From: Desulfobacterales bacterium
Lineage (GTDB): Bacteria; Desulfobacterota; Desulfobacteria; Desulfobacterales; SURF-7
DNA: 64,000 nt
NCBI GenBank assembly: GCA_028277765.1
Contig: JANQFQ010000028.1
Coordinates: 362-64,361, forward strand
Reading direction: 5' to 3'
A model generated the notes under the pieces. It saw only the letters and a program-made list of their open reading frames with translations, was not told the origin of the DNA and ran no database searches. Below are positions 40,489 through 60,684 of this stretch, in pieces (position 1 is the first letter of the stretch; every line of letters starts with the position of its first letter). A program made the position numbers and the translations under genes.

Positions 40489-40998
40489 TTAATTAGGTCT
40501 GAATTTGAAAATTGTAAATGGCTGTTTGCAGACCACTTCATCCTTCTGGTTGGAATAAGTATACACAACGGTCAGGAAATACCCCTGGCCGAGACGTGTT
40601 TTCTTTAACGGTGACGCAGTGATGAACGTCAGCGTGTATTTCAGCTTATCACCCGGACGCATTGGTTTGAAATATTCCTGGGATGTGGTTGTTGCCACCA
40701 CATATGGGTAACCTGCTTCTCCCATAATCTCCGTCAGTATCTCCAAGGTGTGCGGCTCACGGTCTTCTGGCGGCCACAGCCGGGGGACACAATACGCCTG
40801 CGCCATCGTCGGCGGCGCGATGATACCTTTATATTTGCTATTTTTCGCGTACTCTTCATCCGTGTAAAGAGGGTTGCCGTCCTGCATTGCTTCACTCCAG
40901 TGGCGGATCATCGGTTCATTAACCTCATCGTTTGCAGGATAAGGACCGGTTACCTGGCCGATCATGGACTGAAGTTTATCATATAGATCATCACTCAT
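40489..40998 (-). CDS. MaoC-like hydratase subunit (ChsH2 N-terminal-like)
   Basis: VNEPMIRHW.EAM.D.NP.Y, APPTM, K.T.LG.GYF. Confidence 0.87.
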   Translation of the reverse strand: MSDDLYDKLQSMIGQVTGPYPANDEVNEPMIRHWSEAMQDGNPLYTDEEYAKNSKYKGIIAPPTMAQAYCVPRLWPPEDREPHTLEILTEIMGEAGYPYVVATTTSQEYFKPMRPGDKLKYTLTFITASPLKKTRLGQGYFLTVVYTYSNQKDEVVCKQPFTIFKFRPN

Positions 40999-41017
40999 AT
41001 TCTTTACCTCCTGCTAT

Positions 41018-42193
41018 TTAACCGGCCATGGGCATAAAAAGACCTGCCATGGCGATAATGGTCTTCTGGACTTCGATAGCGCCGCCACCGAAAATAAAAA
41101 CAATATCTGCCCTGTAACCGATTTCAATATCTCCTTCAAGGGGGGCAAGATGGTCAGGATACTGTATCAGCCCCAGGGGTCCGAAGATTTCCAGGATGGA
41201 ATTGTTGACTTTCTGATAAAGCATGGAACCATACGCTTTAACTGTTGAGGCTTCTGCGTATACCATCTCCTCATTGGTTATTTTCATTGCCACCTGGAAA
41301 TTGAGCAGCTTAAGGACTTCGATTTCAGCCGTGAGTTCAGCAAATTTTGCCTTTACACCGGGATGTTCAATAATATACTTGCCGTCAGCCTTTGTTTCTT
41401 TCGCGAATTCAACTGCCAGTTCCACTCTGCGTCTTAACGGAGAAGACGTGCAGAGAGCAATCCGTTCTAGGTCGAGCTGATTGGTAATATATTTCCAGCC
41501 CCAATTTTCATCTCCCACAAGGCGGTCCTTATGGACCCTAACATTGTCGTAAAATGTTGAGTTTGTCTGCAAGTTGCCGACCGTGTGCAGGGGGACAATT
41601 TCGATGCCTGGAGAATCAGCATCAAGTAGAAAGATGGAAATTCCCCTTGATTTTTTTTCAGCATTTGGATCGGTTACTGCGGCAAACCATATATACTTGG
41701 CAAAATGAGCAAGACTGGTAAATGACTTTTGACCGTTCAGAATATAATAATCTCCATCCTTTTCAGCGGTCGCTTGAAGGGATGACAGGTCAGAACCCGC
41801 GTCAGGTTCGGTATAACCGATGGCGATTTCAATATTCCCTTTTAAAATCTCGGGCAGGACCATATCTTTCATTTCATCAGAACCGTATTTCATTATTGTC
41901 GGTCCGACTGTGTTCAGGGCAATGATGGGGAGGCGGGCATCATAGTAATCAGCGGTTTCAAAGAAAATATGCTGTTCCATGGGCGTGAGACCCTTACCGC
42001 CGTATTCCTTGGGCCATCCCAGACCGAGCCAGCCGTCTGAACCAAGTTTTTTCCAGAATTCCTGGCACAACGGACCACCGGTTTCACCCAGCTCAAGAAA
42101 CTCTTGTTGAAGTTCCGGCGTGATCGCTGTTTCAAGGTATTCAGCAAACTCTTTTTGAAAATTTTTCTGTTCTGATGTTAATGCAAAATCCAT
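41018..42193 (-). CDS. Acyl-CoA dehydrogenase, FadE26/29-like subunit
   Basis: GWPKEYGG, IGYTEP.AGSDL, QLDLER, FGGG..EVQK.II. Confidence 0.92.
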   Translation of the reverse strand: MDFALTSEQKNFQKEFAEYLETAITPELQQEFLELGETGGPLCQEFWKKLGSDGWLGLGWPKEYGGKGLTPMEQHIFFETADYYDARLPIIALNTVGPTIMKYGSDEMKDMVLPEILKGNIEIAIGYTEPDAGSDLSSLQATAEKDGDYYILNGQKSFTSLAHFAKYIWFAAVTDPNAEKKSRGISIFLLDADSPGIEIVPLHTVGNLQTNSTFYDNVRVHKDRLVGDENWGWKYITNQLDLERIALCTSSPLRRRVELAVEFAKETKADGKYIIEHPGVKAKFAELTAEIEVLKLLNFQVAMKITNEEMVYAEASTVKAYGSMLYQKVNNSILEIFGPLGLIQYPDHLAPLEGDIEIGYRADIVFIFGGGAIEVQKTIIAMAGLFMPMAG

Positions 42194-42830
42194 TATAATA
42201 CTCCCTGTTGGTTACTGGTTTTTGGGCTGTTTTGGGCTGCTGCTCATAAGGCATTGCCAAAAAACCTTGAAATTATAGATAGATATTAATGCCTATTGAT
42301 AATATTAATATTTATTAAAAATTCTTTCTAACCATGCTAATTGAGTTAAGTATTACATACTTGAATGTTGGGCTAAGATAACTGGTTCAGGAAACGCCAA
42401 AGTTTCAGCCAACCTGTCACAGACTGCGCCTCATAAAAATAACATTTAATATCAAGCAGATAGGAAGAAAAATTCATAAGCCAAGTACATTGCAATACAG
42501 AAAACTCAACAATTATTAATATTGTACACCCTAAAAAAATAGAATGTATTACTTACTTGTTTTAACGTTTTTGTCAAGCAATTTTTAAGTTTTCCCATGA
42601 TCGTTGCTTCAAAGCGATCTCGTTGCATATATCTGATTTTTTTGAACATATAAAAAATATAAATATCTTGATAAAAATTCTATAATTGGGTATGTAAAAA
42701 ATTTCAAATTTATAAGCGGTTTAGGATGACCCTGGGTAATAAGTTTATAGTGTTAAATCAGTTAATTATATTTATTCAATAATCATAAGGAAAGGCTGCT
42801 GTGTCGTCTTTCCGGAACGAGGAGGAATGT

Positions 42831-43589
42831 ATGGCAATTAACAAGATCGTTTCTACAATGGATGAAGCTGTTGCCGGTATGCATGACGGTGCCATGATAC
42901 ATGTGGGCGGTTTCGGCACTATTGCCAGTGCGCCGAGCTGTCTTCTTGAAGCTGTATCTGAGCTGAATATCAAGGACCTTACCGTTGTTTCCAACAGCGG
43001 TGGTTTTGGCAAGGAAATCTGGGGCGAACATGATGTGGCGGTTCTTCACCAGACAGGCAAGATAAAAAAACATATTGTGTCCGCTCCTACAAATCCCTTG
43101 ATTGTAAATGAACTGGAGACAAGGTTCAGAGCAAGGGAAATCGAAGTGGAGCTGGTCCCCCAGGGTACCATGGCGGAGCGGATAAGGGCAGCCAGAGTTG
43201 GCCTTGGTGGTATTTTAACGCCAGTGGGTATTGGTACGGTTATTGAGGAAGGTAAAGAGGTGAAGGAGATTAACGGTGTCAAATATCTGCTGGAACTACC
43301 CTTAATGGCTGATTTTTCTCTTATAAGGGGCGCAAAGGCCGATAGATGGGGCAACCTTGTTTATAACGGGACGTCAAGAACGTTTAATGCCACCATGGCT
43401 GGCGCAGCCAAGGTTACCATTGCTGAAGTTGATGAGGTCGTTGAACTTGGCGATTTGGATCCTGAAGAGATCATTACACCCGGTGTTTATGTTGATAGGA
43501 TTGTATTAAGGTCTGCTCCCAAAGCAAAAGATAACTACGAAGAGGTCGCTCAAAGAGCGGCTGACAAAAAAGAGAAAGAGGAGGCATAG
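42831..43589 (+). CDS. 3-oxoacid CoA-transferase subunit A
   Basis: VGGFG, VSN.G, PQGT.AERIRA, ADRWGNL; GGAGG RBS before ATG 42831. Confidence 0.93.
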   Translation: MAINKIVSTMDEAVAGMHDGAMIHVGGFGTIASAPSCLLEAVSELNIKDLTVVSNSGGFGKEIWGEHDVAVLHQTGKIKKHIVSAPTNPLIVNELETRFRAREIEVELVPQGTMAERIRAARVGLGGILTPVGIGTVIEEGKEVKEINGVKYLLELPLMADFSLIRGAKADRWGNLVYNGTSRTFNATMAGAAKVTIAEVDEVVELGDLDPEEIITPGVYVDRIVLRSAPKAKDNYEEVAQRAADKKEKEEA

Positions 43590-43590
43590 G

Positions 43591-44274
43591 ATGAACGATA
43601 AATTTAGTGACAAGTTTAGACTGGATGATCAGACTATGGCTCTCCGTGTGGCCAAGGAACTGGAAGACGGTATGGTTGTTAATCTGGGCATAGGAACCCC
43701 CTGCCTCGCGGCCAATTTAATTCCTACAGATAAAGAGGTCCTGTTTCATGCGGAAAACGGCTGCCTTGGGTTCGGACAGATATGCACTGCAGGCGAAGGG
43801 AGTCCGGATATTGTTAATGCGGGCGGACAGCCAGTTGAACCCAAACCAGGTATGTGTTTTCTTGAGCATTGTGATTCCTTTGCCATTGTCCGAAGAGGGC
43901 TACTTGACTATACGGTCCTGGGCGGCCTTCAGGTGTCTGAAAAAGGGGATCTTGCAAACTGGATGGTACCAAAGAAAGAGATCGGTACCATTGGCGGCGC
44001 AATGGACCTGGCGTTGTGCGCCAAAAACACAATCGTACTGATGACACATAACACAAAGGATAATCAGTTTAAAATTGTAAAGGAATGCAGTTACCCGCTT
44101 ACTGGTGAACGGTGTGTGAATATGGTCATAACCGATATCGCTGTTATGGTGATTACAGAGGATGGGATTGTACTCAAGGAAACAGCTCCTGGATGGACCG
44201 CTGAAGAGATACAGGAACTTACTGAACCAACGCTGATCATTGATCCGGATTTGCATGATATAGAACTGGTGTAG
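43591..44274 (+). CDS. 3-oxoacid CoA-transferase subunit B
   Basis: VNLGIG.P, AENG (catalytic Glu), GDLANW, GGAMDL. Confidence 0.93.
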   Translation: MNDKFSDKFRLDDQTMALRVAKELEDGMVVNLGIGTPCLAANLIPTDKEVLFHAENGCLGFGQICTAGEGSPDIVNAGGQPVEPKPGMCFLEHCDSFAIVRRGLLDYTVLGGLQVSEKGDLANWMVPKKEIGTIGGAMDLALCAKNTIVLMTHNTKDNQFKIVKECSYPLTGERCVNMVITDIAVMVITEDGIVLKETAPGWTAEEIQELTEPTLIIDPDLHDIELV

Positions 44275-44281: not shown

Positions 44282-45289
44282 ATGCGCGTACTTTTAACCG
44301 GCGCTTTTGGCAATCTTGGGATTGCCGCAATTGAGGAACTGCTCAGGCAAGATCATGATGTTCGATGTTTTGACATTGCCTCAAAAAAAAATAAAAAGAA
44401 AGCTAAGCAGTTTAACGGCCGGATAGAAATAATATGGGGTGATATCCGCAACAGGGAGACAGTGAACGGGGCTGTTGACGGGCAGGAGGCTATTATCCAT
44501 AATGCAGCTGTTTTGCCTCCGGTGACCGACCTTCAACCTGAACTTGCGCGGGCCATCAATGTTGAGGGAACACGATATGTTATTGATGCTGCAAAGGTAT
44601 CATCCCTTAAACCACTTGTTATATACGCATCATCTGTTGTCGTTCATGGTGCTGGTAAAGACAGCCGACCGCCGATAAAAGCAAGTAATCCCTTGAAACC
44701 GACGGACAATTATTCAACCCACAAGATTGAATGTGAAAAAATCATCGAAGAATCAGGAAATCCGTGGGTTGCGTTAAGAATTGGTGTGTCATTAGATCCT
44801 AACACTCGGGATGCAAACGGAGATGCGTTCAGGAAAATGTTTAATGTGACCCCTGAAACAAGGCTGGAATATGTTAATCCAAAGGATGTAGCGCTTGCGC
44901 AGGTGAATGCCCTGAAGTGCCCTGAAGCTGTTGGGAAGGCGTTTCTTATTGGAGGAGGGGAAACATGCCAGGTTACCTATCGTGATTTGTTTGATGCCAT
45001 TTTTAACGCGCTTGGTATTGGTATGCCGCCCATAGATGCGTTTGGAACTGATTCCTTTTACACGGACTGGATGGACACAGAAGAGAGTCAGCGGCTTTTG
45101 AAGTATCAACAAGGAACATTTGAAGAGTATCGAAAAGAGCTGATGCGCAGCATGGGCATCATCAGATGGTCAGTGTTTCTGTTCCGCCCTTTGGTGCGAT
45201 GGATGATTCTCAGGTATTCGGAGCCGTGGCAATCCAGAGGCAAGAAAAGCAAAATCCGGAATTCAAAGCACGAAACAATAATAAACTAA
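44282..45289 (+). CDS. Extended SDR (NAD-dependent epimerase / 3beta-HSD-like)
   Basis: TGAFGNLG, NVEGT, YSTHK (YxxxK). Confidence 0.85.
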   Translation: MRVLLTGAFGNLGIAAIEELLRQDHDVRCFDIASKKNKKKAKQFNGRIEIIWGDIRNRETVNGAVDGQEAIIHNAAVLPPVTDLQPELARAINVEGTRYVIDAAKVSSLKPLVIYASSVVVHGAGKDSRPPIKASNPLKPTDNYSTHKIECEKIIEESGNPWVALRIGVSLDPNTRDANGDAFRKMFNVTPETRLEYVNPKDVALAQVNALKCPEAVGKAFLIGGGETCQVTYRDLFDAIFNALGIGMPPIDAFGTDSFYTDWMDTEESQRLLKYQQGTFEEYRKELMRSMGIIRWSVFLFRPLVRWMILRYSEPWQSRGKKSKIRNSKHETIIN

Positions 45290-46526: not shown

Positions 46527-47165
46527 ATGGATATTAAAGAAATCGCGGAATCGTTTGTAAAGCTCCAGACTGATCCTACCAAAGAGAAAATACAGGCTGC
46601 TTTGGACGAAGGGATGGATCCGGTTGACATTCTTCAGGAGGGGGTGATTGCCGGCCTGCAGGAGGTTGGAAAAAAGTTTGAGGCAGAGGAATACTTTTTA
46701 GCGGAACTGATGATGGCCGGGAAACTCGGAGAAGCCTGTATGGCAATTATCAATCCACATCTCCCCGAAAACACCGGACCCGCAAAAGGCACGGTAGTGC
46801 TGGGGGCAGTGGAAGGGGATCTTCATGACATCGGCTACGGTCTTGTGGCAAACCAGCTGAAACTGGCGGGTTATGACGTCCATCCAATAGGGGTTAATAT
46901 TCCGAGCCTTCAGTTTATTGAAAAAGCCCAGGAACTGAACGCTGATATCATTGGTCTTTCAGCCTTCCTGGTAACCACTATCCCAAACTGTTCAGAGGTC
47001 GTTAAATACTTAGTTGATATGAATATCAGGGACAAATTCAAGGTGATTATAGGTGGTGCGGAAACGACTAAGGCAAAAGCAGAAGAGATGGGGTGTGATG
47101 GTCAGGCGGATGATGCATTTGAAGCAGTGACTCTCTGTAATACATTGATGGGGCACACATCCTAA
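46527..47165 (+). CDS. Corrinoid (B12-binding) methyl-carrier protein
   Basis: Cap domain (G..F...EYFL.EL), GDLHDIG (DxHxxG), IGLSAFL, IIGGA. Confidence 0.93.
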   Translation: MDIKEIAESFVKLQTDPTKEKIQAALDEGMDPVDILQEGVIAGLQEVGKKFEAEEYFLAELMMAGKLGEACMAIINPHLPENTGPAKGTVVLGAVEGDLHDIGYGLVANQLKLAGYDVHPIGVNIPSLQFIEKAQELNADIIGLSAFLVTTIPNCSEVVKYLVDMNIRDKFKVIIGGAETTKAKAEEMGCDGQADDAFEAVTLCNTLMGHTS

Positions 47166-47221
47166 ACTTTTATAGAATTATTATTTGGTTCAGACATTTA
47201 CAAAAACGATGAGAGGGACAG

Positions 47222-48865
47222 ATGACAAACAAACCGGAAAAATGGGACATGGAAACCGATGTGCTGGTTATTGGAACAGGCGCTGCAGGGCTTACGTCAG
47301 CGATAGTTGCTAAAGATAACGGGGCAGCGGTGCTGGTGATAGAAAAATCAGGCCTGGTAGGCGGTACAACATCCGCTTCTGGGGGTGCTGTATGGGCACC
47401 CTGCAATCATCATATGACTGAAAAAGGGATAGATGATTCAAGGGAAGAGGCCTTGGTATATTGTAAACAGATAACCAAAGGGCGTGTGCCTGAGGAGCTT
47501 GTCGAGAAATATATTGATACGGTTCCGGAAATGCTAAAATTCATGGAAGATACTACGCCTTTGAAATTTGAAGTGGCCACAATGCCTGACTATCATCCCC
47601 AATTCGAGGGAGGACATGACGGGAAAGACTCACGGACATTAGGTCCGCTTACGTTTAATAAAATGGAACTGGGTGACAGCATGGCAAAACTTCGCCCAAA
47701 TCCCACGATGGGGCTGCCGCTTACCTTCGCGGAGATGGATGAGTGGGACTCGATCTGCAAGCCTCAGAATGTCGATTTTGAACTGATTGCCCAGCGTATG
47801 GGGGAGGGCCTGTGCGGCTTTGGCGAGGCCTTGATGGCTGCGCTGTACAAGGGATGCCTGGACAGGGATATTGATCCAATTGTTAACACCCGCGCATTGG
47901 AATTGGTTGTTGATGACGGAAAGGTAATAGGTATCATCGCCCGGCAGGAGGATAAAGAGATCTATATCAGTGCTAGCAAGGGCGTTATCCTTGCGAGTGG
48001 TGGTTTTGAATGGAACGAGGAATTGAAAAACACGTTTCTGCCGGGAGAAATTACCCATCCAAACAGCCCGCCCTACAATGAAGGCGACGGACTTAAGATG
48101 GCCATGTCTGTCAATGCAAAACTGGGAAATATGACAGAGCACTGGGGATGGGTATCCATGTCTATTCCAGGAGAAGAGGTTGACGGACGTCCCCTTAGCA
48201 GGGGAAGTCTTACCGAGCGGGCCCTTCCCCATGTGATCATTGTCAATAAAAAGGGGAAACGGTTTGTAAATGAAGCGGCAAGTTACAACGACATGTTCAA
48301 ACCTTTCTGGGAAGTTAATGAAAATACCCTTGAATACAAGAACCTTCCATCATGGCATGTGTTTGACCAGCAGTTCCATGACAAGTACGCTTTTTTAACA
48401 GTCATGCCGGGTGAAGATGTTCCTGATTACATCCTTCAAGCAGATACGATTAAGGAACTGGCTGAAAAAGCGGGTATTGACCCTGAGGGACTTGCCAATG
48501 AAGTTGAGAAATTTAACGGGTATGTTGAAAAAGGGGAGGACCCGGACTTTAACAGGGGTAAGGATGTTTTTGACCACTACTGGGGGGATGCTGATAACAA
48601 ACCGAATCCGTCTCTGGGATATATTAAAAAACCACCGTTTTACGCCATGCAGAATTACTGCGGGTCTCTTGGAACCAAAGGCGGTCCCAGAACCAGCACA
48701 GACGCGCAGGTGCTTCATATGTCCGGTGTTCCGATTCCCGGACTTTATGCAGCAGGTAATGTAACTGCAGTTGTCAGCGGGCCGAGCTATTTTGGCGCTG
48801 GCGGGACAATCGGCCCGGCAATGACGTTCGGTTATTTAGCCGCCAGGCATGCTGCAAAACAGTAA
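47222..48865 (+). CDS. kstD: FAD-dependent 3-ketosteroid Delta1-dehydrogenase-like flavoprotein
   Basis: GTGAAG, GGTTSASGG..W.P.N, PDYHP, RFVNEAASY, LGTKGG, YFGAGGTIGPAMTFGY. Confidence 0.72.
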   Translation: MTNKPEKWDMETDVLVIGTGAAGLTSAIVAKDNGAAVLVIEKSGLVGGTTSASGGAVWAPCNHHMTEKGIDDSREEALVYCKQITKGRVPEELVEKYIDTVPEMLKFMEDTTPLKFEVATMPDYHPQFEGGHDGKDSRTLGPLTFNKMELGDSMAKLRPNPTMGLPLTFAEMDEWDSICKPQNVDFELIAQRMGEGLCGFGEALMAALYKGCLDRDIDPIVNTRALELVVDDGKVIGIIARQEDKEIYISASKGVILASGGFEWNEELKNTFLPGEITHPNSPPYNEGDGLKMAMSVNAKLGNMTEHWGWVSMSIPGEEVDGRPLSRGSLTERALPHVIIVNKKGKRFVNEAASYNDMFKPFWEVNENTLEYKNLPSWHVFDQQFHDKYAFLTVMPGEDVPDYILQADTIKELAEKAGIDPEGLANEVEKFNGYVEKGEDPDFNRGKDVFDHYWGDADNKPNPSLGYIKKPPFYAMQNYCGSLGTKGGPRTSTDAQVLHMSGVPIPGLYAAGNVTAVVSGPSYFGAGGTIGPAMTFGYLAARHAAKQ

Positions 48866-48877
48866 GGAGGATACATC

Positions 48878-49327
48878 ATGCCGCAAGTTGAATATAAAAA
48901 TATTGTAAACGCGCCAATGGACGCAGTCTGGTCCTATGTGAGCGTTATTGATAAATGGGCGCCTTTTCTTAAAGGTTATGTAAAGCATGAGGAGCTGAAC
49001 GACAAGGAGTCGATCTGGACCCTTAAAGGTGATGTGGGGGTGCTCTGTCGTGTGGTTGAAATGAAAGTAAACATTACGGACTGGGATGATGACGCGAAAA
49101 AAGTCGCTTTTGAAATCGAAGGGATCAATGAAAAAGCGACTGGTGGCGGCACATTCATCGCCGTGTCACAGTCAGACAATGAAACAGAACTCACATTTAT
49201 TCTTGAAATCAATGCCGGGGGGATGATCGGCCCGGTTGTCAATGTACTTATGAAACCGATGCTTAAGCCTGTGGCTGCTGAAATGGCTAATAAGATTAAA
49301 GATGCCATAGAGAAAGAACAGGCATAG
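48878..49327 (+). CDS. SRPBCC/CoxG (START-fold) ligand-binding protein
   Basis: VNAP...VW.YV....W...L.GY pattern, 149 aa. Confidence 0.8.
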   Translation: MPQVEYKNIVNAPMDAVWSYVSVIDKWAPFLKGYVKHEELNDKESIWTLKGDVGVLCRVVEMKVNITDWDDDAKKVAFEIEGINEKATGGGTFIAVSQSDNETELTFILEINAGGMIGPVVNVLMKPMLKPVAAEMANKIKDAIEKEQA

Positions 49328-49380
49328 TCACAGGTTTCTTATTAAGATTTTAATCAATTTTATAAAATAGGAGAGAGAGA

Positions 49381-50730
49381 ATGATACCCTTAATCGATTT
49401 TCAGGATCGTGTTCTAAACGGTCCGGTAAAAAAGTCTGATGAGTTTGACCTGGAATTTTCAATGAAACTCCGTGAGCTGGTTGAAAAGTACGACATCAAA
49501 TATAATCCTGAAGAATTGATCGTCGATGATGAAACTGCTGATGCTGTTTTTGATGCAGGGGTGGATTTGCTCGCAGAAATCGGAATTTATCACATGGATA
49601 CCCAGCGTGTGATCATGTTCAATAAGCAGGAGATCCTTGATGTTGCAGACGAGTATAAGGAGACGCCCAGCAAGGTGGTCTTCGGGCAGGGTGATGATGA
49701 AATGACCATCGCTTACAGAACAGGTGAAGATAAAACACCGCCGGTTTTATACTCAGGTGCGCCGGCTGTGGCGACAGAAGAGGACTTTATGCCTTATGTT
49801 CAGTCCTTTGCACAGGAGGAGACGGTCGCGGGTATGGGGATCATGCCCGGCCTCGCGAAACTCGGGGATATTGAACCAAAGGCCGGCACACTGAGCGAAA
49901 TTCATGTTGCCCTGTGGGAACAAGAGCAGCTCCAGGAAGTGTTGAGACGGGTCGGCAGACCGGGAATGAACATGGGCCTGCTGGCGACGGCAAGCGAACT
50001 GGGCGCGATATATGAATGCATCAAGCCCGGACGCCGTGAAACATGGAACACCCAAATTGGAATTCATATCATACCGGAGATGAAGCTTGATTGGGCAGCA
50101 CTTTTAAAAGCTCATTTTTGTCAGGACAGGGGTATTGCACCGTGGCAGAGCGCCATGTCGATGATCGGCGGCCTCTGCCGTGACGCTGCTGACGCGGCTG
50201 TCGGTATGATCGCGAATATGCTTGGACAGATCTGTTATGGACATGGACCGACATGTAGTGTCTTCCCTAATCACATGGACGGAAGCTGGGGTACTCTCGC
50301 CACACACTGGTGCGCAGGCGCTGCGCTCAGGGCATCAGAGCGAAATATCAAAGTGGCTACCGGAAGTTCGGTTTCAGGACCTTACCAGACATGGAGACAT
50401 CCTGTTTCGCTGCTGAATTCAGCGGCCATTGCTACCATTTACACGGCTTGCGGTTTCTCATACTCCTGGATTGCCGGACACACAGGGCTTGAGGCCCGTC
50501 TTATAGGCGAAGTAATGAAGGTTACCGCTGGTATGGACAAGGCCAAGGCAAATGAGCTTGCCCTTAAAATCCAGGCAAAGGTTGATGAACAGCTCCCGGG
50601 AATAACAGAACAGATCCCGTTTTTAGGAGCATATGATTATGACGGTAAGGAAACAAAACCAAAGCCTGAATATGAGGCTGGTATGATGAAAGTTAAGGAA
50701 GAACTGGCTGCTCTTGGGATGCCGTACTAA
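49381..50730 (+). CDS. MtmB-family substrate:corrinoid methyltransferase, non-pyrrolysine
   Basis: GP....EFD, KYDIKY.PE, AD.VF.AG..LL, GRPGM, E.K.D, GLE.R...EV; no in-frame TAG. Confidence 0.85.
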   Translation: MIPLIDFQDRVLNGPVKKSDEFDLEFSMKLRELVEKYDIKYNPEELIVDDETADAVFDAGVDLLAEIGIYHMDTQRVIMFNKQEILDVADEYKETPSKVVFGQGDDEMTIAYRTGEDKTPPVLYSGAPAVATEEDFMPYVQSFAQEETVAGMGIMPGLAKLGDIEPKAGTLSEIHVALWEQEQLQEVLRRVGRPGMNMGLLATASELGAIYECIKPGRRETWNTQIGIHIIPEMKLDWAALLKAHFCQDRGIAPWQSAMSMIGGLCRDAADAAVGMIANMLGQICYGHGPTCSVFPNHMDGSWGTLATHWCAGAALRASERNIKVATGSSVSGPYQTWRHPVSLLNSAAIATIYTACGFSYSWIAGHTGLEARLIGEVMKVTAGMDKAKANELALKIQAKVDEQLPGITEQIPFLGAYDYDGKETKPKPEYEAGMMKVKEELAALGMPY

Positions 50731-50784
50731 GTTTAAAATCAAAACTGGATCCCGCTTTTAGCGGGACTGGGGACTGAGTTGTGG

Positions 50785-50944
50785 AAATCCGAAGCACGAA
50801 ACACGAAACAATATTAAATGATCAAAATTATAATGACCAAAACAATTAGGATCCTTCAAAACAATTGACAAACAAAAAGTTTTGAGAATTTGTAAATTTA
50901 ATATTCGAATTTGTTTCGTGCTTCGATATTCGAATTTCGGATTT
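50785..50944. repeat. 7-mer inverted-arm element
   Basis: AAATCCGAAGCACGAAACACGAAAC... / ...GTTTCGTGCTTCGATATTCGAATTTCGGATTT. Confidence 0.8.
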
Positions 50945-51031
50945 ATTTTTCATAAGATTAAGCTAAAGAAAATCTACGATCAGATTTTCCTGAGAGAGAT
51001 AGATATTTTTGAATAATCAGAGGGAAGATTT

Positions 51032-52012
51032 ATGAAAATTCTATTGACGGGTGCGTTTGGCAACCTTGGTGCATTTACGCTGGAAATCCTTCTGGCTCAG
51101 GGGGGCCATGACATACTCTGTTTTGATATTCAAACACCACAAAATGTAAAAACAATGAAACGGCTTGCCAGCAAGGGGCGTTTTGAAACCTATTGGGGAA
51201 ATATATCAGATCCTGATATTATACCTGATTTAGTGGAGGGGAAAGATTGTATCCTTCATCTTGCCGGTATCATTCCTCCGCCAAGTGAGAAGTTTCCTGA
51301 CCTTGTGCAAAAGGTTAACGTGGAAGGGACGCAAAACCTGGTAAATGCCGCGGTAAAGCTGGAGAATAAGCCAAAATTTATTTTTACAAGTTCGGTTACC
51401 GTACATGGGAACATGTATTCTACGCCGCCGCCAAGGCATGCGGATGAACCTATAAAGGGCACTGATAATTATACTCATTCAAAGATAGCAGGAGAGAAAT
51501 TTATCAGGGAAAGCGGAGTCCCCTATACGATTTTACGGGTAGCAGCTGCGATGCCGCTGGATATGATGGAGCGGGATATAAAAACATCCATGACGCAATT
51601 GTTTGAGATTCCTTATGACCAGCGTATAGAAGCTATCCACCCACGGGATGTTGCTACAGGTATCGTGAATTCAATAACAGCAGATACGGTCGGCAAGATT
51701 CTGTACCTGGGGGGCGGCAAAGACTGCCAGATGTTGTACTGTGAATTTATTGAAAGACTGCTTGGGTCACTTGGGATGGGGATGCCGCCTAAATCCGCTT
51801 TCCGGCAACCGAAAGATAATAGCGAATACTGGTATACTGATTATATGGATACTGAGGAGTCGCAGAAACTCCTTAAATTTCAAAACAACAGTTTTGATGA
51901 TTTTCTCAAGGAGATGAATAAAGATTTTGGATGGAAGGGCTTTTTTACAAAGCTGTTCAACCCAATTATTGGGCGTTTTATTCTGAGGTATTCAGCGTAT
52001 TATAAACAATAA
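51032..52012 (+). CDS. Extended SDR (3beta-HSD-like), paralog of 44282..45289
   Basis: TGAFGNLG, YTHSK, shared YTD.MDTEESQ.LLK.Q. Confidence 0.85.
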   Translation: MKILLTGAFGNLGAFTLEILLAQGGHDILCFDIQTPQNVKTMKRLASKGRFETYWGNISDPDIIPDLVEGKDCILHLAGIIPPPSEKFPDLVQKVNVEGTQNLVNAAVKLENKPKFIFTSSVTVHGNMYSTPPPRHADEPIKGTDNYTHSKIAGEKFIRESGVPYTILRVAAAMPLDMMERDIKTSMTQLFEIPYDQRIEAIHPRDVATGIVNSITADTVGKILYLGGGKDCQMLYCEFIERLLGSLGMGMPPKSAFRQPKDNSEYWYTDYMDTEESQKLLKFQNNSFDDFLKEMNKDFGWKGFFTKLFNPIIGRFILRYSAYYKQ

Positions 52013-52064
52013 GCCGCCATGACGGAAATTAAAATAAATAATAAAAACATTTTTAGAGGTACAT

Positions 52065-52892
52065 ATGGAATATCAGCACAAACTACTATATATCGGTGAA
52101 TCACTTAATGCCAGCATCCCTAAAGTTAAAGAAGCTGTCACAACCCATGATGAGGATACGATAAAGGGACTGGCACAGCGCCAGGAAGAATGCGGCGCCC
52201 ATATGCTTGATGTGAATGCTGCAGTAACAGGTCAGAACGAAATCGAGGACCTTGTATGGATGGTTGAACTTGTACAGGACGTAACTGATCTGCCCCTGGT
52301 TTTAGACAGTTCAAACCCCGAGGCACTTCAGGCGGCGCTTAAAGTATATAAAGGTGAAAGGGCTATTATCAGTTCTGTTACCGGGGAATGGACTGAGGGG
52401 CATGAAAACCTACTCGCGCTCGCAGTTGAAAATAATTGCGGACTGGTAGCTATGAGCATGGATAAATCCGGCATATCGAATGATGCTGAGGAACGTTTTA
52501 AAGTTGCCGAAGAACTATTTGAACATACCACAAAGGCCGGTCTCAAACCGGAGAACCTGTATATTGACCCGCTGGTGATGACGATATCAGCGGATACAAA
52601 GGCTGGCGCTACTTTCCTGAACCTTATGACGATGCTGGATGAGCGCCTTCCGGATGCACGTAAGTTCTGCGGTGCGAGCAATGTCAGTTACGGCATGCCC
52701 CTCCGTAAACTAATCAACCATACGTTTATACCCATGATTGTTGCTCTTGGCATGGATGCGTTTCTTGTGAATGTGCGGGACCAGGGACTGATGGCTATTT
52801 TTCGCGCGTGTGCAACCCTTATCGGTCAGGATGAGTGGAGTATGGAATATATTACAGCGTTCAGGGAAGGGAAACTGGATGTGAAGAAGTAA
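52065..52892 (+). CDS. Methyltetrahydrofolate:corrinoid methyltransferase (pterin-binding TIM barrel, AcsE/MetH-like)
   Basis: IGESLNAS, LDVNA, LVLDSS, YIDPLV, GASNVSYGMP.R. Confidence 0.9.
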   Translation: MEYQHKLLYIGESLNASIPKVKEAVTTHDEDTIKGLAQRQEECGAHMLDVNAAVTGQNEIEDLVWMVELVQDVTDLPLVLDSSNPEALQAALKVYKGERAIISSVTGEWTEGHENLLALAVENNCGLVAMSMDKSGISNDAEERFKVAEELFEHTTKAGLKPENLYIDPLVMTISADTKAGATFLNLMTMLDERLPDARKFCGASNVSYGMPLRKLINHTFIPMIVALGMDAFLVNVRDQGLMAIFRACATLIGQDEWSMEYITAFREGKLDVKK

Positions 52893-53330: not shown

Positions 53331-55289
53331 ATGGAGACGTATAAAATTCTGCTTGCGGATGATGATCCTGCCTTTCTTGGGAGCCTGAAAGAGGAGTTTG
53401 AAAGACACGGATTCACTGTGCACACTGCCAGCATGAAAAATGTTCTTAAACCCCTGGAAACAGAGATATATGACCTGGTTGTCGCGGCACCAGTGATGGA
53501 TGAAGCCGAGCGGTTTTCAATATTGAATACAATCAAGACGTTTGGGCCTGACATCCCGGTAATCATTATGGCGAACAATGCAAATATAGACACCGCGATT
53601 GAGGCATTCAGAAAGGGGGCGTGCGATTTTTACGTAAAACCGTGTGAACCAGAGGAGATTCGTGTAAGGGTGATGAGTGTCCTTAAAAACCGCAGAACTA
53701 TGCAACAGGAGAGGGATCAGAGCGGAAGTGAGGAAAAGTTCAGAACTATCTTTGAAAACGCGAATGATGAGATAGCGATTACGACAACGGACGGCACCTT
53801 TATTGAGGTGAACAGCAGGGTGGAGGATATCTTTGGTTATAAAAGAGAAGAGATTATAGGAAAGAATATCTATGATCTTAATGTTCTGAAAACAGAAGAC
53901 AGGGATCGGTCTGTCAAGCTTTTTGGGGATGTAACTAATGGAATAAACGTTCCGATTATGGAATTTGAGGCTTTCCGCAAGGACGGGAGCATCGTAGATG
54001 TTGAAGTCAATTCAAAGCTGATTGAAAAAGATGGTGTTAAAAGCGGTATTCTTCACATTATCAGGGATGTGAGTGACAGGAAACGGGCGGAAAAAAAGCT
54101 GAAGCAGAGCAGGGAAAATCTTGGCGCTATACTTGAAAATATTCCTGATATTATTTTTACTGTGGCGCCTGATGGGACATTTTTAACATTGAACAGGGCG
54201 CCGATGAAAGGTGTTACGGTTAATGAAGCCATTGGCACAAAGATATATGACTGGATGCCGCCTGAGCATGCAGCGGTAACAAGGAAAAACATTGATCGGG
54301 TGTTTAAGACCGGAAAGCCTGATACATATGAAGAGATAGGGCCGGGCCCTGACGGAGAATATAATGCGGTTTATCAGGCACGGGCTATCCCGATAAAAGA
54401 AGGAGATAACGTTGTCGCAGTGATGAATATCAGTACGGATGTTACTGAGAAACGGTATGCGGAAGAAAAATGGCTTCTTTTTATGAAGGCGGCGACTGAC
54501 AGTTTTACACTATATGATTCAGATCTTAACCTGGTGGAAGTAAACCAGGCTGCCCTTGAGATATTTCCCCCCGGAACTACCAAAAAAGATATTGCTGGAA
54601 AAAACCTGATGGAGATTGTGCCGGAGATTTACGGGACCGGCAGGTATGAGAAGTTCAAAGAGGTGATAGATACAGAAAAACCGTATGTTGAGGATGCGAT
54701 TGTACCGCCGGAATCCTTTGGCCATGACCGTTACTTGAAGATACGGGCATTTAAGGTGGGGGATGGCCTTGGAATCATCACAACCGATATCTCGGAACGG
54801 AAACAGGCTGAAAAGGAACTCCGCGCCCACAGGGACCATCTTGAGGAGCTTGTCAGGGAGAGAACCCTTAGCCTTGAGGAGACAAATACTGCCTTGGAAA
54901 TACTTCTGAAAAAAAGAGATAAAGACAAAAAGGATCTTGAAGAGAATATGCTCGTCAATGTAAAGGAGCTTATCCTCCCTTATCTGGACAAGCTGAGGGA
55001 GAGTCGGCTTGATGAACGACAGCGGGTGTTTGTGGAACTGCTTGAACATAACCTGAATGACATTATATCACCTTTTATTCGTGAACTCTCACTTGAATAC
55101 CTTAACCTTACACCGTCTGAGATCCAGTTGACCGATTATATCAAACAGGGTAAAACAACAAAAGAGATTGCCAACCTGCTCAATCTTGCCACAAGCACCA
55201 TCGATTTCCACAGGGATAATATACGGAAGAAACTTGGGATCAAAAACAAAAAAATTAACCTTAAAACCTATTTACTGTCACTGCAGTAA
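53331..55289 (+). CDS. REC-PAS(x3)-LuxR transcriptional regulator
   Basis: N-terminal REC, three PAS, LTPSE...GKTTKEIA...[10 protein letters not shown]. Confidence 0.92.
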
Positions 55290-55930: not shown

Positions 55931-56014
55931 AGATAATAGAAGTATAGTAAAAGCTAATATGACTTTTTTTAAATACTAGTGCGGGCGGGGACATTCCAAA
56001 AAGGAGGAATAAAA

Positions 56015-58105
56015 TTGAAAAAACTAAAAAAACTGCTTGAACCGCTTGATATTGCCGGGATCAAGTTTAAAAACCGTATGTTCAAAGCAGCATCCGGCTC
56101 CAGGATGTTTTTCGAGAATGACGGGTTTGTTAATGAAAGAGGGAAACGGTGGTATGAAGCCCTGGCCAAGGGGGGTGTCGGGTGTGTTATTGTTGAATCC
56201 CCTGCCATTGATGAGCCGTTAAGTCTTAAAAAACCTGGGGATTTCCGCCTTGATGATGACAAGTACATTCCGGGGATGAAGGACCTGGTTGATACCATTC
56301 ATAAGCATGACTGCCCAGCAATCCTGCAACTCTACCATGCAGGCCCATGGCACCAGAGAGAAGAATCCGGCCTGACACCGGTCTCTGCGTCGCCTCACGG
56401 CGAACCGGAATTCAAGGGACATGAAACACTCGCGCCGTGCGAGGAATTGACCATAGAAAAGATTAAAGAGATTGAGGAGCAGTTTATCAGCGCTGCAGTA
56501 AGAGGGAAAGAAGCTGGATTTGACGGTGTGGAGGTAAATGCCGGCGGTAATCACTTGCTGTCCACCTTTATGTCCCGGTATTGGAACTACAGGCATGATG
56601 AATACGGCTGTGACACCATGGAAAACCGGGCACGGATTGTTGTAAATATAATTGAAGGTATCAAAGAACGGTGTGGACAGGATTATCCTGTGCCGGTTCT
56701 TTTTAACGGACTTGAACTGGCTATGGGTGAGCTCGGGCAGACCATTGAAGAATCCCAGGATTTCACGAAAATATTTGAGGAGGCAGGTGCGGATGCTTTT
56801 CATATAAGGGTTTTTGAGCTTGATAACTGCGCGTGCTACTGGCCGGAGTTTAACTACTATCCCCAGGCAAGAAATCCTATGCCGGAGGGGATGGATTGGA
56901 GCCATAAGGGTGCAGGTTCATTTACCCCTGCTGCGTACGCTATTAAACAGGTGACATCAAAGCCGGTGCTTACAGTAGGTCGTTGGGACTACAGCCTTGA
57001 ATTCGCAGAGGAGAGTCTGGAAAAAGGGCATGTGGACGGCATCGGTTTGGTTAGGGGCCTTCAGGCGGATACAGAACTTCCAAACAAAATCGTTGAAGGG
57101 CGGATAGATGATATTGTGCCGTGTACGTCATGTATGACATGCATTGAAGGACACCAGTTCCCCATACCGCCTCCGATTAAATGCAGGATAAACGCGTTTC
57201 TAGGAACAGAGCTTGACTATTGGAGCTATCCTCCCATTGAGAAGAAAAAGAAAGTCTTGGTGGCAGGGGGTGGATCTGCCGGTCTTGAGGCTGCCAGGGT
57301 TGCTGCGATAAGGGGGCATGATGTAACCCTCTATTCACAGGACAGCTACCTAGGCGGCCTGATGAATATGGCTGCTGTTATCAAGGGCAACTATCCTGAA
57401 GATATGGAGAAGATAATAGATTACTATAAAATTCAGCTCAAGAAGCTGGGTGTAAAGATCAAGAAAGGTAAGGAAGTTACGCAAAAGGTTATTGAAAAGT
57501 TAAAACCAGATGTGTTGATTATCGCCACAGGCGGACATGCAACAGATTCGGTGCTTCCCGGCAGTGACAACAAGAAAGTGGTGGATGCCAATGTGCTCCG
57601 TTCCCAGCTTGGTCTTGCCCTAAAGGTGTCCAGTCCCAGCAAGTTGAGCAAAGCGACAAAATTATGGATGCCTATTGGCAAAAAAGTGGTAGTTATGGGC
57701 GGGGATATAAAAGGCGCTCAGCTTGCTGAGTTCCTGGTAAAAAGGGGGAAGCAAGTGACGATCGTCTGGGAAGGTGACCTGATGGCATTTGGTGACGGAA
57801 TGAACCTGATGAATGTTTACCTGCTTGGGCTCTGGCTTACGGAAAAAGGCGCAGTAATGATACCTGAAGTCAAATACGAGGAGATTAATGACGAGGGATT
57901 GGTGATTACAACACCGGACGGGAATAGACAGACCCTTGAAGCTGATTCTATTGTGCCGGTCCTACCGCTCAAGAAAAATGATGATCTTTATGATGCCGCA
58001 CAGGGAATGGTCCCGGAGATCTATAAAATCGGCGCCTGCAAGGATCCGAATGAACTGATCGTACACGCGGTTGCCGAAGGTGCTGAGGTGGCGTACGAGA
58101 TCTAA
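56015..58105 (+). CDS. Old yellow enzyme / 2,4-dienoyl-CoA-reductase-like Fe-S flavoenzyme (BaiCD/H architecture)
   Basis: KNR, AKGGVG, AGFDGVE, DEYG...ENRAR, CTSCMTC...C Fe-S motif, GGGSAGLE; GGAGG RBS before TTG 56015. Confidence 0.9.
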   Translation: MKKLKKLLEPLDIAGIKFKNRMFKAASGSRMFFENDGFVNERGKRWYEALAKGGVGCVIVESPAIDEPLSLKKPGDFRLDDDKYIPGMKDLVDTIHKHDCPAILQLYHAGPWHQREESGLTPVSASPHGEPEFKGHETLAPCEELTIEKIKEIEEQFISAAVRGKEAGFDGVEVNAGGNHLLSTFMSRYWNYRHDEYGCDTMENRARIVVNIIEGIKERCGQDYPVPVLFNGLELAMGELGQTIEESQDFTKIFEEAGADAFHIRVFELDNCACYWPEFNYYPQARNPMPEGMDWSHKGAGSFTPAAYAIKQVTSKPVLTVGRWDYSLEFAEESLEKGHVDGIGLVRGLQADTELPNKIVEGRIDDIVPCTSCMTCIEGHQFPIPPPIKCRINAFLGTELDYWSYPPIEKKKKVLVAGGGSAGLEAARVAAIRGHDVTLYSQDSYLGGLMNMAAVIKGNYPEDMEKIIDYYKIQLKKLGVKIKKGKEVTQKVIEKLKPDVLIIATGGHATDSVLPGSDNKKVVDANVLRSQLGLALKVSSPSKLSKATKLWMPIGKKVVVMGGDIKGAQLAEFLVKRGKQVTIVWEGDLMAFGDGMNLMNVYLLGLWLTEKGAVMIPEVKYEEINDEGLVITTPDGNRQTLEADSIVPVLPLKKNDDLYDAAQGMVPEIYKIGACKDPNELIVHAVAEGAEVAYEI

Positions 58106-59202: not shown

Positions 59203-60684
59203 ATGAGTGACGAAGTTTATGACTTAATAGCAGTAGGGGCAGGTGGCGCTGGGCTGGCCGCGGCAGTAACCGTTGCAGAAGGCGGAGGAAAAGCTTTAAT
59301 CCTTGACAGACTCGGGGTTACAGGCGGAGCAAGTGTATTCGCGAAAGGGTTATTTGCCACTCAAAGCCACATTCAGAAGCAAGAAGGTGTTGAAACCGAT
59401 CCGGATGAAATATTTCTTCAGCACATGGAATACACACACTATCTTTCAAATGCCAGGCTTGTTCGGGCGATTATCGACAAATCCGCTGATACCATCAAAT
59501 GGATTGAAGACAGGGGCGCGGTCATTCTAGGTGTTCCCCCGCTCTATCCCGGAGCCCCCCAGACATGGCATACAACAAAACAGGAAGGTAAGGGAATAAC
59601 AAAGGCGCTTACGGCAACAGCAAAAGACCTGGGCATACCCATCCAACTCAAGACAAGAGCCAGAAAACTGATCATAGAAGACGGTAAAGTAGCCGGCGTT
59701 ATCTGTGACGATAAACAAGGGAACACCTTAACATTCCGCTCGAAAACTGTTGTGATCGCTTCAGGCGGTTTTGCGAACAACTTTGATATGATGCGTAAAT
59801 ATACAAATTGCGGTGAGCCCACAGTACAAATGGCTTTCGGGCAGGTCGGCAAGGAAGGCGACGGTGTAAAAATGGCATGGGAAGCAGGTGCCGCTGAAGA
59901 AGGTGTCAGCGTCATCCAGCGCGGCCTTGCGGGTGTGCTGAAGAAAAAAGAGGTCCTGAAAGAAGCGCCTAAAAAGAGCCAGTTCGATAAGTACATTACA
60001 GCCATCCTGAAACAGCCAACCTTCTGGGTTAACGCGAACGGCGAACGTTTCTTCAATGAATCAGAATTCTCTTTCGCGCATATCGGCAACGCCATGTCCA
60101 AACAGCCTTTTCAGATCCTGTTTAACATGTTTGATGATGACTACAGGAAACTGATGGAAGAAGAAGGTATCCAGGTGGGGCTGGGCGTGTTTGCGCCTAC
60201 CGGGACAAAAGTGCCGGATGTCAAAGATGCCCTGCAGGCAAGCATGGACAAGGATGAAGCGTGGATATGCGACACTATTGAAGAGCTGGCAGAAAAAACA
60301 GGCCAGAATCTTGAAGTATTAAAAACTAATATTGATGAGTATAATGAATCCTGTGATAAGGGGCGTGACGCGCTTTTCGCAAAAAACCCGGATTTTATGA
60401 GGCCGTTCAGGACACCGCCTTTTTATGCGATCAAGGGACATCCGACCCATGTTGGATCTCTCGGCGGCATTAAAATCAACCATAAGTGCGAAGTCATCAA
60501 AAAGAGCAGCAAGACATTCCTGGATGTGATCCCGGGGCTGTACGCAGCAGGGAATGTGGCCGGCGGCATGTACAGTGATTCATATGATGCTTCTCATACA
60601 CTCGGCCTGACACTCGCTTTTGCTTATAATTCAGGTCGTATCGCGGGTGAGGAAGCGCTAAAGTATGTTGGTATAGACGAGTAG
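59203..60684 (+). CDS. FAD-binding oxidoreductase (fumarate reductase/flavocytochrome c superfamily)
   Basis: GAGGAG, IASGGF, GDG, VN.NGERF.NE, LGGIKIN, GLYAAG, SGRIAG. Confidence 0.88.
   Translation: MSDEVYDLIAVGAGGAGLAAAVTVAEGGGKALILDRLGVTGGASVFAKGLFATQSHIQKQEGVETDPDEIFLQHMEYTHYLSNARLVRAIIDKSADTIKWIEDRGAVILGVPPLYPGAPQTWHTTKQEGKGITKALTATAKDLGIPIQLKTRARKLIIEDGKVAGVICDDKQGNTLTFRSKTVVIASGGFANNFDMMRKYTNCGEPTVQMAFGQVGKEGDGVKMAWEAGAAEEGVSVIQRGLAGVLKKKEVLKEAPKKSQFDKYITAILKQPTFWVNANGERFFNESEFSFAHIGNAMSKQPFQILFNMFDDDYRKLMEEEGIQVGLGVFAPTGTKVPDVKDALQASMDKDEAWICDTIEELAEKTGQNLEVLKTNIDEYNESCDKGRDALFAKNPDFMRPFRTPPFYAIKGHPTHVGSLGGIKINHKCEVIKKSSKTFLDVIPGLYAAGNVAGGMYSDSYDASHTLGLTLAFAYNSGRIAGEEALKYVGIDE

Follow-up and report, generated by a model that had tools for sequence, protein, structure and literature searches.

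Does a run of six plus-strand genes in a Desulfobacterales bacterium encode a cobalamin-dependent system that moves an angular methyl group of a steroid? The run occupies positions 46527-52892 of a 64,000-nucleotide stretch, hereafter the window (positions 362 to 64,361 of contig JANQFQ010000028.1, assembly GCA_028277765.1; C13:362-64361 of genome G000 in our numbering), from a genome of 4.89 Mb in 156 contigs that is 91.8% complete. It encodes, in order, a corrinoid protein (CoP), a FAD flavoprotein resembling the dehydrogenases KstD and AcmB, a small SRPBCC protein, a methyltransferase of the MtmB family without pyrrolysine (MT1), a short-chain dehydrogenase/reductase (SDR) and a methyl-tetrahydrofolate:corrinoid methyltransferase (MT2). 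An earlier note had proposed that these genes form a complete MT1/corrinoid/MT2 set interleaved with steroid A-ring enzymes. The listing of open reading frames (ORFs) and the Pfam and NCBIfam matches agree with it on all six co-oriented genes and their domains (Table 2), and the methyl-transfer set is borne out by a PF05369 match in MT1, B12-binding domains in CoP and an MT2 above the cut-off of NF005719. At the level of sequence, the steroid methyl-transfer interpretation is supported.

On balance, the run is probably a module of the type of AbeABC, the system of Phosphitispora sp. TUW77 (PMC11912376), which would take an angular methyl off a steroid-like ring, aromatise ring A and pass the methyl to tetrahydrofolate (THF). 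Gene content, homology, phylogenetic position, a conserved neighbourhood and downstream pathway genes were observed; from them we infer each catalytic step, the direction, and the substrate, which would be an androgen or a 3-oxo-steroid derived from a sterol.

Lineage of the methyltransferase and its partners

The MT1 frame stays open under translation table 11, with no in-frame stop and no in-frame UAG for pyrrolysine. MT1 shares family PF05369 with MtmB1 of Methanosarcina barkeri (PDB 1l2q) and aligns with it over residues 5-446 (7.6e-26) at about 30% identity or less, but the pyrrolysine position of MtmB1 faces a gap in the window protein, as expected from its earlier description as a non-pyrrolysine homolog. 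The partners differ as well: an MT2 of the THF type and steroid-type redox enzymes in the window, MtbA and coenzyme M (CoM) for MtmB. A word-indexed search with MT1 returned 308 proteins at E <= 0.001 among 8000 scored candidates; among the matches listed, 119 other proteins were 54-84% identical to it, some named for metagenome-assembled genomes (MAGs) of Chloroflexi, Dehalococcoidia and Deltaproteobacteria. At the level of 50%-identity cluster representatives there were 585 matches with E <= 0.001 and 65 with E <= 1e-30, and identity dropped rapidly from 54% to about 30%. Scanning one genome per species gave 77 MT1 loci, the closest in a Desulfobacteraceae MAG (78%); four were from Phosphitispora sp. 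TUW77 (45%), whose genome holds six MT1 matches at 43-47%. The trait is patchy within the host's own GTDB family, because MT1 occurs in two of 18 genomes (two of nine genera); the second of these genomes gave the same matches as the Desulfobacteraceae-labelled MAG of locus L006.

Two trees, a quick one of 116 rows and a careful IQ-TREE analysis of 73 rows (LG+G4; the 116 rows minus 45, comprising 30 locus-derived MT1 and 15 far representatives, plus L042 and L096), agreed; both were built without named EmtA and MtqB sequences. The window MT1 fell within a 60-row clade with 100/100 support. Ten of its rows form an AbeA group (five AbeA-like copies from Phosphitispora sp. TUW77, one Moorellales MAG gene and four representatives), the other 50 form a group that contains the window copy, and 13 more distant MtmB-like representatives fell outside the clade. 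The grouping with AbeA, away from other MtmB-like proteins, is what the earlier interpretation predicted. Inside the 50-row group, MT1 belongs to a 15-row clade (95/86) together with its four own paralogs, genes of two Desulfobacteraceae MAGs and one Fibrobacterota-labelled MAG, and genes from Chloroflexota, Myxococcota, Binatia and Pseudomonadota. Its sister (94/90) is a 14-row clade (100/100), to which MT1 is 53-58% identical, against 45% to the AbeA copies.

This 14-row clade includes the MT1 of a complete genome (G048; 55% identical to ours), which lies in the order luciferase-like oxidoreductase, 102-codon ORF, CoP, MT1 and second luciferase-like gene, with a gene for the corrinoid activator RACo about 3 kb away. 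The same arrangement has been described for emtDCBA and its neighbours in Denitratisoma spp. (10.1101/714501), and from this arrangement in G048, rather than from a named sequence, we infer that the clade is Emt-type. AbeA and EmtA are given as about 40% identical (PMC11912376). In the family to which the Steroidobacteraceae-labelled MAG of locus L079 belongs, 6 of the 201 genomes searched had MT1 homologs. As a separate observation, MT1 residues G153, W179, T203, G227 and N279 are at least 95% conserved in the 60-row clade and rare in the 13 outgroup representatives; T203 adjoins the gap opposite the MtmB pyrrolysine.

Among the partner proteins, CoP is 57% identical to the CoP beside abeA in the Phosphitispora loci (L058-L064) and 78% identical to that of locus L007. 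MT2, the sole member of the six above a curated NCBIfam cut-off, is 42-43% identical to the Phosphitispora MT2 and 82-83% identical to those of L006 and L007. Among solved structures, the flavoprotein best matched 7p18, named '3-oxosteroid 1-dehydrogenase' (1.7e-100), followed by 4c3x (1.1e-62), both over nearly the full length. Its Y124, Y355, Y523 and G527 align with Tyr119, Tyr318, Tyr487 and Gly491 of 4c3x (KstD1 numbering, with a 20-residue offset), which we take to be the catalytic positions. Unlike AcmB and KstD, the flavoprotein is encoded inside a methyltransferase operon. The SRPBCC protein had no solved relative below E 0.1; it is possibly a carrier of hydrophobic ligands. Further downstream, the window encodes an old yellow enzyme (OYE)-type flavoprotein, with homologs (31-33% identical) on the flanks of L059, L060 and L064 among the four Phosphitispora loci and none within coverage in L058.

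Conserved neighbours, paralogs and downstream capacity

We surveyed the neighbours of 77 full-length public MT1 genes, leaving out copies that covered less than 93% of the query. The window proteins and the luciferase-like and RACo proteins of L096 were searched by tblastn on all loci, and a neighbour was counted within 8 kb of MT1 at >= 50% query coverage, with >= 30% identity for KstD-like genes. Because many loci stop at contig ends, the counts in Table 1 are lower bounds, and loci from the same assembly are not independent.

Table 1. MT1 genes of each clade with a given neighbour within 8 kb
Clade	MT1 genes (assemblies)	CoP	MT2	KstD-like	SRPBCC	OYE	Luciferase-like	RACo
AbeA clade	6 (2)	6	4	0	2	3	0	1
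Mixed Thermodesulfobacteriota / Myxococcota / Pseudomonadales	14 (14)	13	9	3	0	1	0	6
Dehalococcoidia	29 (9)	9	8	11	11	17	0	0
Emt-type clade (by arrangement)	17 (13)	11	0	0	0	0	7	6
Window clade without G000	11 (9)	4	3	8	1	1	1	0

MT2 neighbours were found for 24 of the 60 MT1 genes outside the Emt-type clade versus none of the 17 inside it, and KstD-like neighbours for 22 of 60 versus none of 17. The partner genes singled out in the earlier note are thus conserved neighbours of this MT1 family across phyla, and the recurrence of CoP, MT2, KstD-like, SRPBCC and OYE genes in Dehalococcoidia, Desulfobacterota and Phosphitispora supports an Abe-type assignment. Eight Dehalococcoidia loci (L017, L027, L032, L033, L036, L037, L039 and L073) share the order CoP-MT1-MT2-KstD-KstD-SRPBCC-OYE, although L037 ends early. 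In the Phosphitispora loci, MT2-CoP-MT1 lies between OYE genes, and in L058 an SRPBCC gene and then a gene for a 505-residue FAD flavoprotein stand 5′ of the abeA-like gene.

Two further arrangements were seen. In Dehalococcoidia MAGs (L013 at 8001-12086, L010, L012), two or three tandem MT1 genes follow up to three OYE genes, which, together with six MT1 matches in the Chloroflexota genome bin.164, suggests a broad substrate range in this group. In Pseudomonadales and Cellvibrionales MAGs (L061-L068, L070, L081), a long-branched subclade keeps the order CoP-MT1-MT2 fixed and lacks KstD-like genes within 8 kb. To find a THF-linked system in marine-type Gammaproteobacteria was unexpected, as the AbeABC paper describes proteobacterial carriers as lacking MT2 (PMC11912376).

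The host genome carries five MT1 genes, the paralogs being 54-57% identical to the window copy, and nine KstD-like genes. A KstD-like gene lies within 2 kb of four of the five MT1 genes; among 200,000 random placements, none reached four and a fraction of 2.5e-5 reached three. At the MT1/KstD pair on contig C96, the adjoining SDR is 56% identical to the SDR of the window run. The MT1 paralog on C92 (L101, 4973-9569) has a classical SDR gene directly upstream on the same minus strand and a sulfatase/TPR protein nearby, and a KstD paralog on C61 (L103, 6493-11185; 60% identical) adjoins an FGE-sulfatase gene and a second FAD flavoprotein. A link of these sulfatases to sulfated steroids is possible.

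The capacity to use the methyl group also appears to be encoded. Matches to CdhC/acetyl-CoA synthase (ACS; 224.7 bits, on C82 beside a RACo gene and an AcsE-like gene) and formyl-THF synthetase (FTHFS; 698.5 bits), and three to methylene-THF reductase (MTHFR), are the markers of a Wood-Ljungdahl pathway for methyl-THF oxidation that the genome thus seems to possess. No gene for RACo or RamA was found on contig C13, in keeping with the earlier remark that no corrinoid-reactivating ATPase is visible in the window, and three are present elsewhere, on C82, C147 and C90. A dsrA match of 619 bits was above its cut-off.

Putative mechanism, substrate and direction

We propose a scheme in which one or more SDRs would oxidise a 3-hydroxy steroid to the 3-ketone and the KstD/AcmB-like flavoprotein would introduce the delta-1 double bond, giving a 1,4-dien-3-one. 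MT1 would then move C19, the angular methyl at C-10, onto the Co(I) of CoP while ring A becomes a phenol, and MT2 would move the methyl from CH3-Co(III) to THF. The methyl branch of the Wood-Ljungdahl pathway could oxidise methyl-THF, sulfate serving as electron sink, and one of the three RACo-type activators whose genes lie on other contigs could re-reduce Co(II). The OYE-type reductase might reduce enone steroids, comparable to the androstanediol formation proposed in Phosphitispora. The parts in the window appear to fit the scheme proposed for AbeABC, in which a delta-1-dehydrogenase supplies the dienone, C19 goes to Co(I) through MT1 as the ring aromatises, and THF receives it through MT2 (PMC11912376).

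Among known systems, AbeABC offers a close parallel to the window. Shared features are an MtmB-family MT1 without pyrrolysine together with a corrinoid protein and a THF-type MT2, OYE-type reductase genes alongside, an SRPBCC gene and a FAD flavoprotein gene (upstream of one abeA copy in Phosphitispora), a Wood-Ljungdahl pathway in the genome and an MT1 in the common 100/100 clade. The two differ in the partner identities given above, in the MT1 subclade and in the KstD/AcmB-type flavoprotein, SRPBCC protein and SDR encoded inside the methyltransferase run of the window. They also differ in gene dosage, with five MT1 and one CoP/MT2 set beside an MT1 in our host and four MT1, four CoP and three MT2 in Phosphitispora (PMC11912376). 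Because the host has dsrA, an external electron acceptor is available to it in place of steroid dismutation. With EmtABCD of Denitratisoma spp. (10.1101/714501; PMC7448270) the window shares such an MT1 together with a corrinoid protein acting, for the window presumably, on C-10 of steroid ring A, and its MT1 and the clade of emtDCBA-like gene order are sisters. However, EmtC and EmtD are a hypothetical protein and an F420/FMN-type oxidoreductase, whereas the window MT1 is accompanied by MT2 and KstD, and no luciferase-like homolog of EmtD was seen within 8 kb of it.

The Emt system uses S-adenosylmethionine (SAM) and works in the methylating direction; the study of D. oestradiolicum reports that moving a methyl from methylcobalamin onto the phenolic ring is endergonic and that SAM drives it (PMC7448270). 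A THF-linked MT2 therefore fits demethylation, and since the window also has MT2 and KstD like the clades outside the Emt-type one, demethylation is favoured as the direction.

A number of observations weigh against the Abe-type reading, beginning with the fact that the module is known here from its genes. MT1 lies outside the AbeA subclade and is sister to a clade labelled Emt-type by gene order, and two profile searches for EmtA by name returned no protein named for Denitratisoma or Steroidobacter; the one-genome-per-species scan gave no Denitratisoma record either. In bin.164, five MT1 copies are 43-50% identical to two AbeA queries (46-50% to L064, 43-49% to L058_3304), a range that did not reproduce the figure of about 66% given for a bin.164 protein in the AbeABC paper (PMC11912376). 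None of the six AbeA loci has a KstD-like gene of at least 30% identity within 8 kb, the L058 flavoprotein being 24% identical to ours. Four of the five MT1 paralogs have no adjoining CoP or MT2, the sole such set standing beside the window copy. A non-pyrrolysine MtmB homolog that was assayed in vitro, MtqB, takes tetramethylammonium and choline (PMC13044021), and a repeat with contig breaks spans the junction between MT1 and the SDR/MT2 pair (see below).

The redox partners are similarly ambiguous. The flavoprotein falls under the KstD cut-offs (NF009478, its best NCBIfam model, 451 bits against 789; NF005882, 436 against 788) and scores 446 bits, close to its KstD score, to the model of a monocyclic ketone dehydrogenase, 4-oxocyclohexanecarboxylate 2-dehydrogenase, so its family alone does not imply a steroid; the FAD_binding_2 domain and the relation to 7p18 uphold the earlier KstD-like assignment, and these scores soften it. 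The SDR is an extended SDR, but its earlier 3beta-hydroxysteroid dehydrogenase (3beta-HSD) label is weak, with 62 bits to PF01073 and generic or sugar-epimerase-type SDRs as its best solved relatives (1.8e-11). The best solved relative of the OYE-type protein is 6qkg, 'NCR' (2.2e-81). Judged by these matches, neither the SDR nor the OYE-type protein is diagnostic as a steroid marker.

Among the other explanations, the one that survives best keeps the chemistry and changes the substrate: C27-C29 sterol dienones, sulfated sterols or other angular-methyl polycyclic terpenoid ketones would be used in place of C19 androgens, with one MT1/KstD pair per skeleton. We consider this unlikely, though it deserves real weight. 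Multiple MT1/KstD pairs, side-chain-type beta-oxidation genes upstream and a habitat label leave room for such sterol-derived or other ketones. Besides the window copy, three MT1 paralogs out of four are paired with a KstD-like gene of their own, only one CoP/MT2 set lies beside an MT1, and Dehalococcoidia have up to three tandem MT1 with several OYE genes (L013). The best solved relative of the flavoprotein, 7p18, is presumably the cholest-4-en-3-one enzyme of an anaerobic sterol degrader. An upstream operon combines genes for Ltp-type thiolases and DUF35/ChsH2-type OB proteins with others for MaoC hydratases and paired acyl-CoA dehydrogenases; the C92 MT1 and C61 KstD copies have their sulfatase and FGE-sulfatase neighbours; and the sole DNA run in which the stretch was found is labelled coral metagenome. 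However, the biochemically supported substrates in the lineage are only testosterone and 1-dehydrotestosterone (Abe) and estradiol and estrone (Emt), alicyclic and aromatic pathways unrelated to steroids contain thiolase/DUF35/MaoC sets too (the weaker matches include BbsB), and the habitat label comes from one run, possibly the source sample.

An Emt-like reversal, in which methyl-THF would load the corrinoid through MT2 and MT1 would methylate estrogens at C-10 to 1,4-dien-3-one androgens that are then degraded, is improbable. MT1 is nearer to the clade with the emtDCBA-like arrangement than to AbeA, beta-oxidation-like genes lie upstream, and AcsE-type MT2 enzymes run in the methyl-THF-to-corrinoid direction in the Wood-Ljungdahl pathway. 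Against this stand the composition of the Emt-type clade (no MT2 in 17, luciferase-like genes in 7 and RACo in 6), compared with an MT2, a KstD-like gene and no luciferase-like gene within 8 kb in the window, and the reported need for SAM to drive the endergonic methylation of the phenolic ring (PMC7448270).

An ordinary amine, quaternary-amine or O-demethylase with coincidental steroid-type neighbours is very improbable. MtqB of Methanococcoides methylutens Q3c (PMC13044021), set beside the window MT1 by description only, has a cognate corrinoid protein too, but is archaeal and CoM-linked with quaternary-amine substrates; the best NCBIfam models of our CoP are glycine-betaine and dimethylamine corrinoid proteins, all under their own cut-offs, and the name 'monomethylamine:corrinoid methyltransferase' that family members bear in the sources is an automatic family name, whereas adjacency to KstD-like genes exceeds every random placement, recurs across phyla and accompanies an MT1 that clusters with AbeA away from the 13 other MtmB-like representatives.

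Returning to an Abe-type demethylating module, we speculate that the host, a sulfate reducer, lives partly on steroid angular methyls. Several MT1/KstD pairs would share one CoP and one MT2 and strip C19 from varied 3-oxo-steroids (androgens, sterol-derived dienones and, it may be, sterols freed of their sulfate). Sulfate would serve to oxidise the methyl, and phenolic 19-nor steroids with an aromatic ring A would be released. Taken as a whole, this picture is tentative and rather doubtful.

The AbeABC paper dates from 2025 and already mentions homologs in marine-sediment MAGs (PMC11912376); the window system is therefore a further case of a known type. Our literature search found no such system described in Desulfobacterota or under sulfate reduction, so the novelty that had been claimed for this lineage stands to that extent, but it is lower than was implied. 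A September 2026 review describes only C17 redox and stereochemical changes of estrogens in sulfate-reducing systems and regards no coupling of steroid oxidation to sulfate respiration as established (PMC13707411). A dsrA-positive genome with a full Abe-type set would offer a concrete candidate for that coupling. Anaerobic estrogen formation is ascribed to one fastidious isolate, which grows only on testosterone (PMC11912376). The distribution of the family suggests that anoxic androgen-to-estrogen chemistry is far more widespread than this single cultured example, and MT1 genes appear far more frequent in uncultured members of Dehalococcoidia and Desulfobacterota than the phrase 'rarity of abeAB genes' in print suggests. 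The comparison yields a usable rule for metagenomes: likely estrogen producers belong to clades linked to MT2, KstD, SRPBCC and OYE genes, and likely estrogen consumers to the one whose MT1 has luciferase-like and RACo neighbours but no MT2. If the reading is true, the released products would be estrogens and estrogen-like sterols, and, together with the larger Dehalococcoidia family, microbial methyl harvesting would be a general source of estrogens in anoxic settings. Ring-A monoaromatic steroids occur in sediments, and such harvesting could explain them.

Assembly, gene order and flanks

All sampled words of the six-gene run were found in the one public DNA run mentioned above, which may be the source of the assembly; no RNA run turned up for the stretch. 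Its contigs match 42-60 kb of the window without differences and break at about 45.33, 50.92-50.94, 52.92-53.18 and 58.2 kb. The breaks are multi-copy repeats with depths of 36 to 300, compared with about 14 elsewhere, and with alternative joints among the break sites. Contigs end within the spacer between MT1 and the SDR (50916-50938, where depth is raised), so CoP-KstD-SRPBCC-MT1 lie on one contig of 5.6 kb and SDR-MT2 on another of 2.0 kb, and because of this break the junction between the two segments rests on the assembly path through the repeat. That the segments stand apart in the real chromosome, joined at one of the alternative repeat copies (about 45.3, 50.9, 53.1 and 58.2 kb), so that the run is partly an artefact, is nevertheless hardly credible: their depths are similar (13.3 and 15.6), relatives show the adjacency free of repeats (MT1 followed directly by MT2 in L006, at 78% and 82% identity; CoP-MT2-KstD-SRPBCC-MT1 in L007), and the same repeat family bounds all segments within about 13 kb even if they were reordered.

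The window contains 7 copies of a 14-base core of this repeat, where 0.04 would be expected, at 32628, 45264, 50790-50810, 50912, 53126 and 58207, and genome-wide there are 44 copies on 25 contigs; the repeats themselves lie at about 45.3, 50.8-50.95, 52.9-53.2 and 58.2 kb. This dispersed intergenic repeat flanks every module of the region and may be a MITE- or REP-like element that shuffles these modules.

Table 2. Features of the six-gene run and its flanks in the window
Feature	Coordinates	Strand	Evidence
Extended SDR, 3beta-HSD-like, second copy upstream of the run	44282..45289	+	PF01073 3.6e-21, PF01370 1.7e-18
LuxR-type regulator, C-terminal GerE helix-turn-helix	45436..46356	+	PF00196 1.3e-10; N-terminal part without Pfam match
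CoP, AbeB-like	46527..47165	+	PF02310 B12-binding, PF02607 B12-binding_2 (4.9e-23, 6.5e-16); DLHDIG motif
KstD/AcmB-like FAD flavoprotein, candidate 3-oxosteroid delta-1-dehydrogenase	47222..48865	+	PF00890 FAD_binding_2 7.8e-67
SRPBCC small protein, CoxG / polyketide-cyclase-like	48878..49327	+	PF06240 CoxG 1.4e-11, PF10604 Polyketide_cyc2 2.7e-11
MT1, non-pyrrolysine MtmB family, AbeA/Emt lineage	49381..50730	+	PF05369 1.4e-43
Inverted and dispersed repeat in the 301-nt MT1-SDR spacer	50785..50945		inverted repeats I1, I2
Extended SDR, weakly 3beta-HSD-like, candidate hydroxysteroid dehydrogenase	51032..52012	+	PF01370 Epimerase 1.3e-18, PF01073 3Beta_HSD 4.5e-17
MT2, methyl-THF:corrinoid methyltransferase, AbeC-like	52065..52892	+	NF005719 289 bits, cut-off 259
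Receiver + PAS + LuxR regulator	53331..55289	+	PF00072, PAS families, PF00196
Three-domain OYE-type Fe-S flavoenzyme (FMN + NAD(P)/FAD domains), candidate ene-reductase	55979..58105	+	PF00724 3.7e-42, PF07992 4.2e-19
Second FAD_binding_2 flavoprotein, fumarate-reductase / KstD superfamily	59203..60684	+	PF00890 2.6e-52

Both sides of the run carry regulators. The earlier claim of flanking PAS-LuxR regulators is right for the downstream gene, which encodes receiver, PAS and LuxR domains; the upstream protein has only the LuxR (GerE) part in Pfam, and it has many paralogs within the genome. The 3′ flank continues with a PilZ protein, the OYE-type flavoenzyme, a TetR regulator, the second FAD_binding_2 protein, a ferredoxin and a minus-strand gene of the 3beta-HSD family. 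It is uncertain whether the second flavoprotein belongs to the module; its top NCBIfam model is vinyl phenol reductase, at 316 bits and under the cut-off of 600.

On the 5′ side, beyond the LuxR-type regulator and the second 3beta-HSD-like SDR (39-40% identical to the SDR of the run), lie a plus-strand pair of 3-oxoacid CoA-transferase genes and a minus-strand operon (together 32791-44274). In the operon, paired acyl-CoA dehydrogenase genes stand with genes for two MaoC-type hydratase subunits; every Ltp-type thiolase gene is accompanied by one for a DUF35/ChsH2-type OB protein, and a fusion of an HMG-CoA-synthase-like protein with DUF35 is encoded along with a thiolase. By their predicted content, the operon and the CoA-transferase pair resemble gene sets for beta-oxidation of steroid side chains or alicyclic acids.

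Rfam at its gathering threshold gave no match in the window, and hence no cobalamin riboswitch there, and the counts of promoters and terminators between 45.2 and 56 kb were no higher than the shuffled expectation (17 versus 19.7 and 13 versus 8.6, respectively). The first 30 kb of the window encode signalling and chemotaxis proteins. A block at 13958-29348, 5′ of the catabolic region, holds two CheR, a CheA/CheW fusion, CheB and a methyl-accepting chemotaxis protein, together with several PAS histidine kinases, a sigma-54 activator and an HD-domain response regulator.

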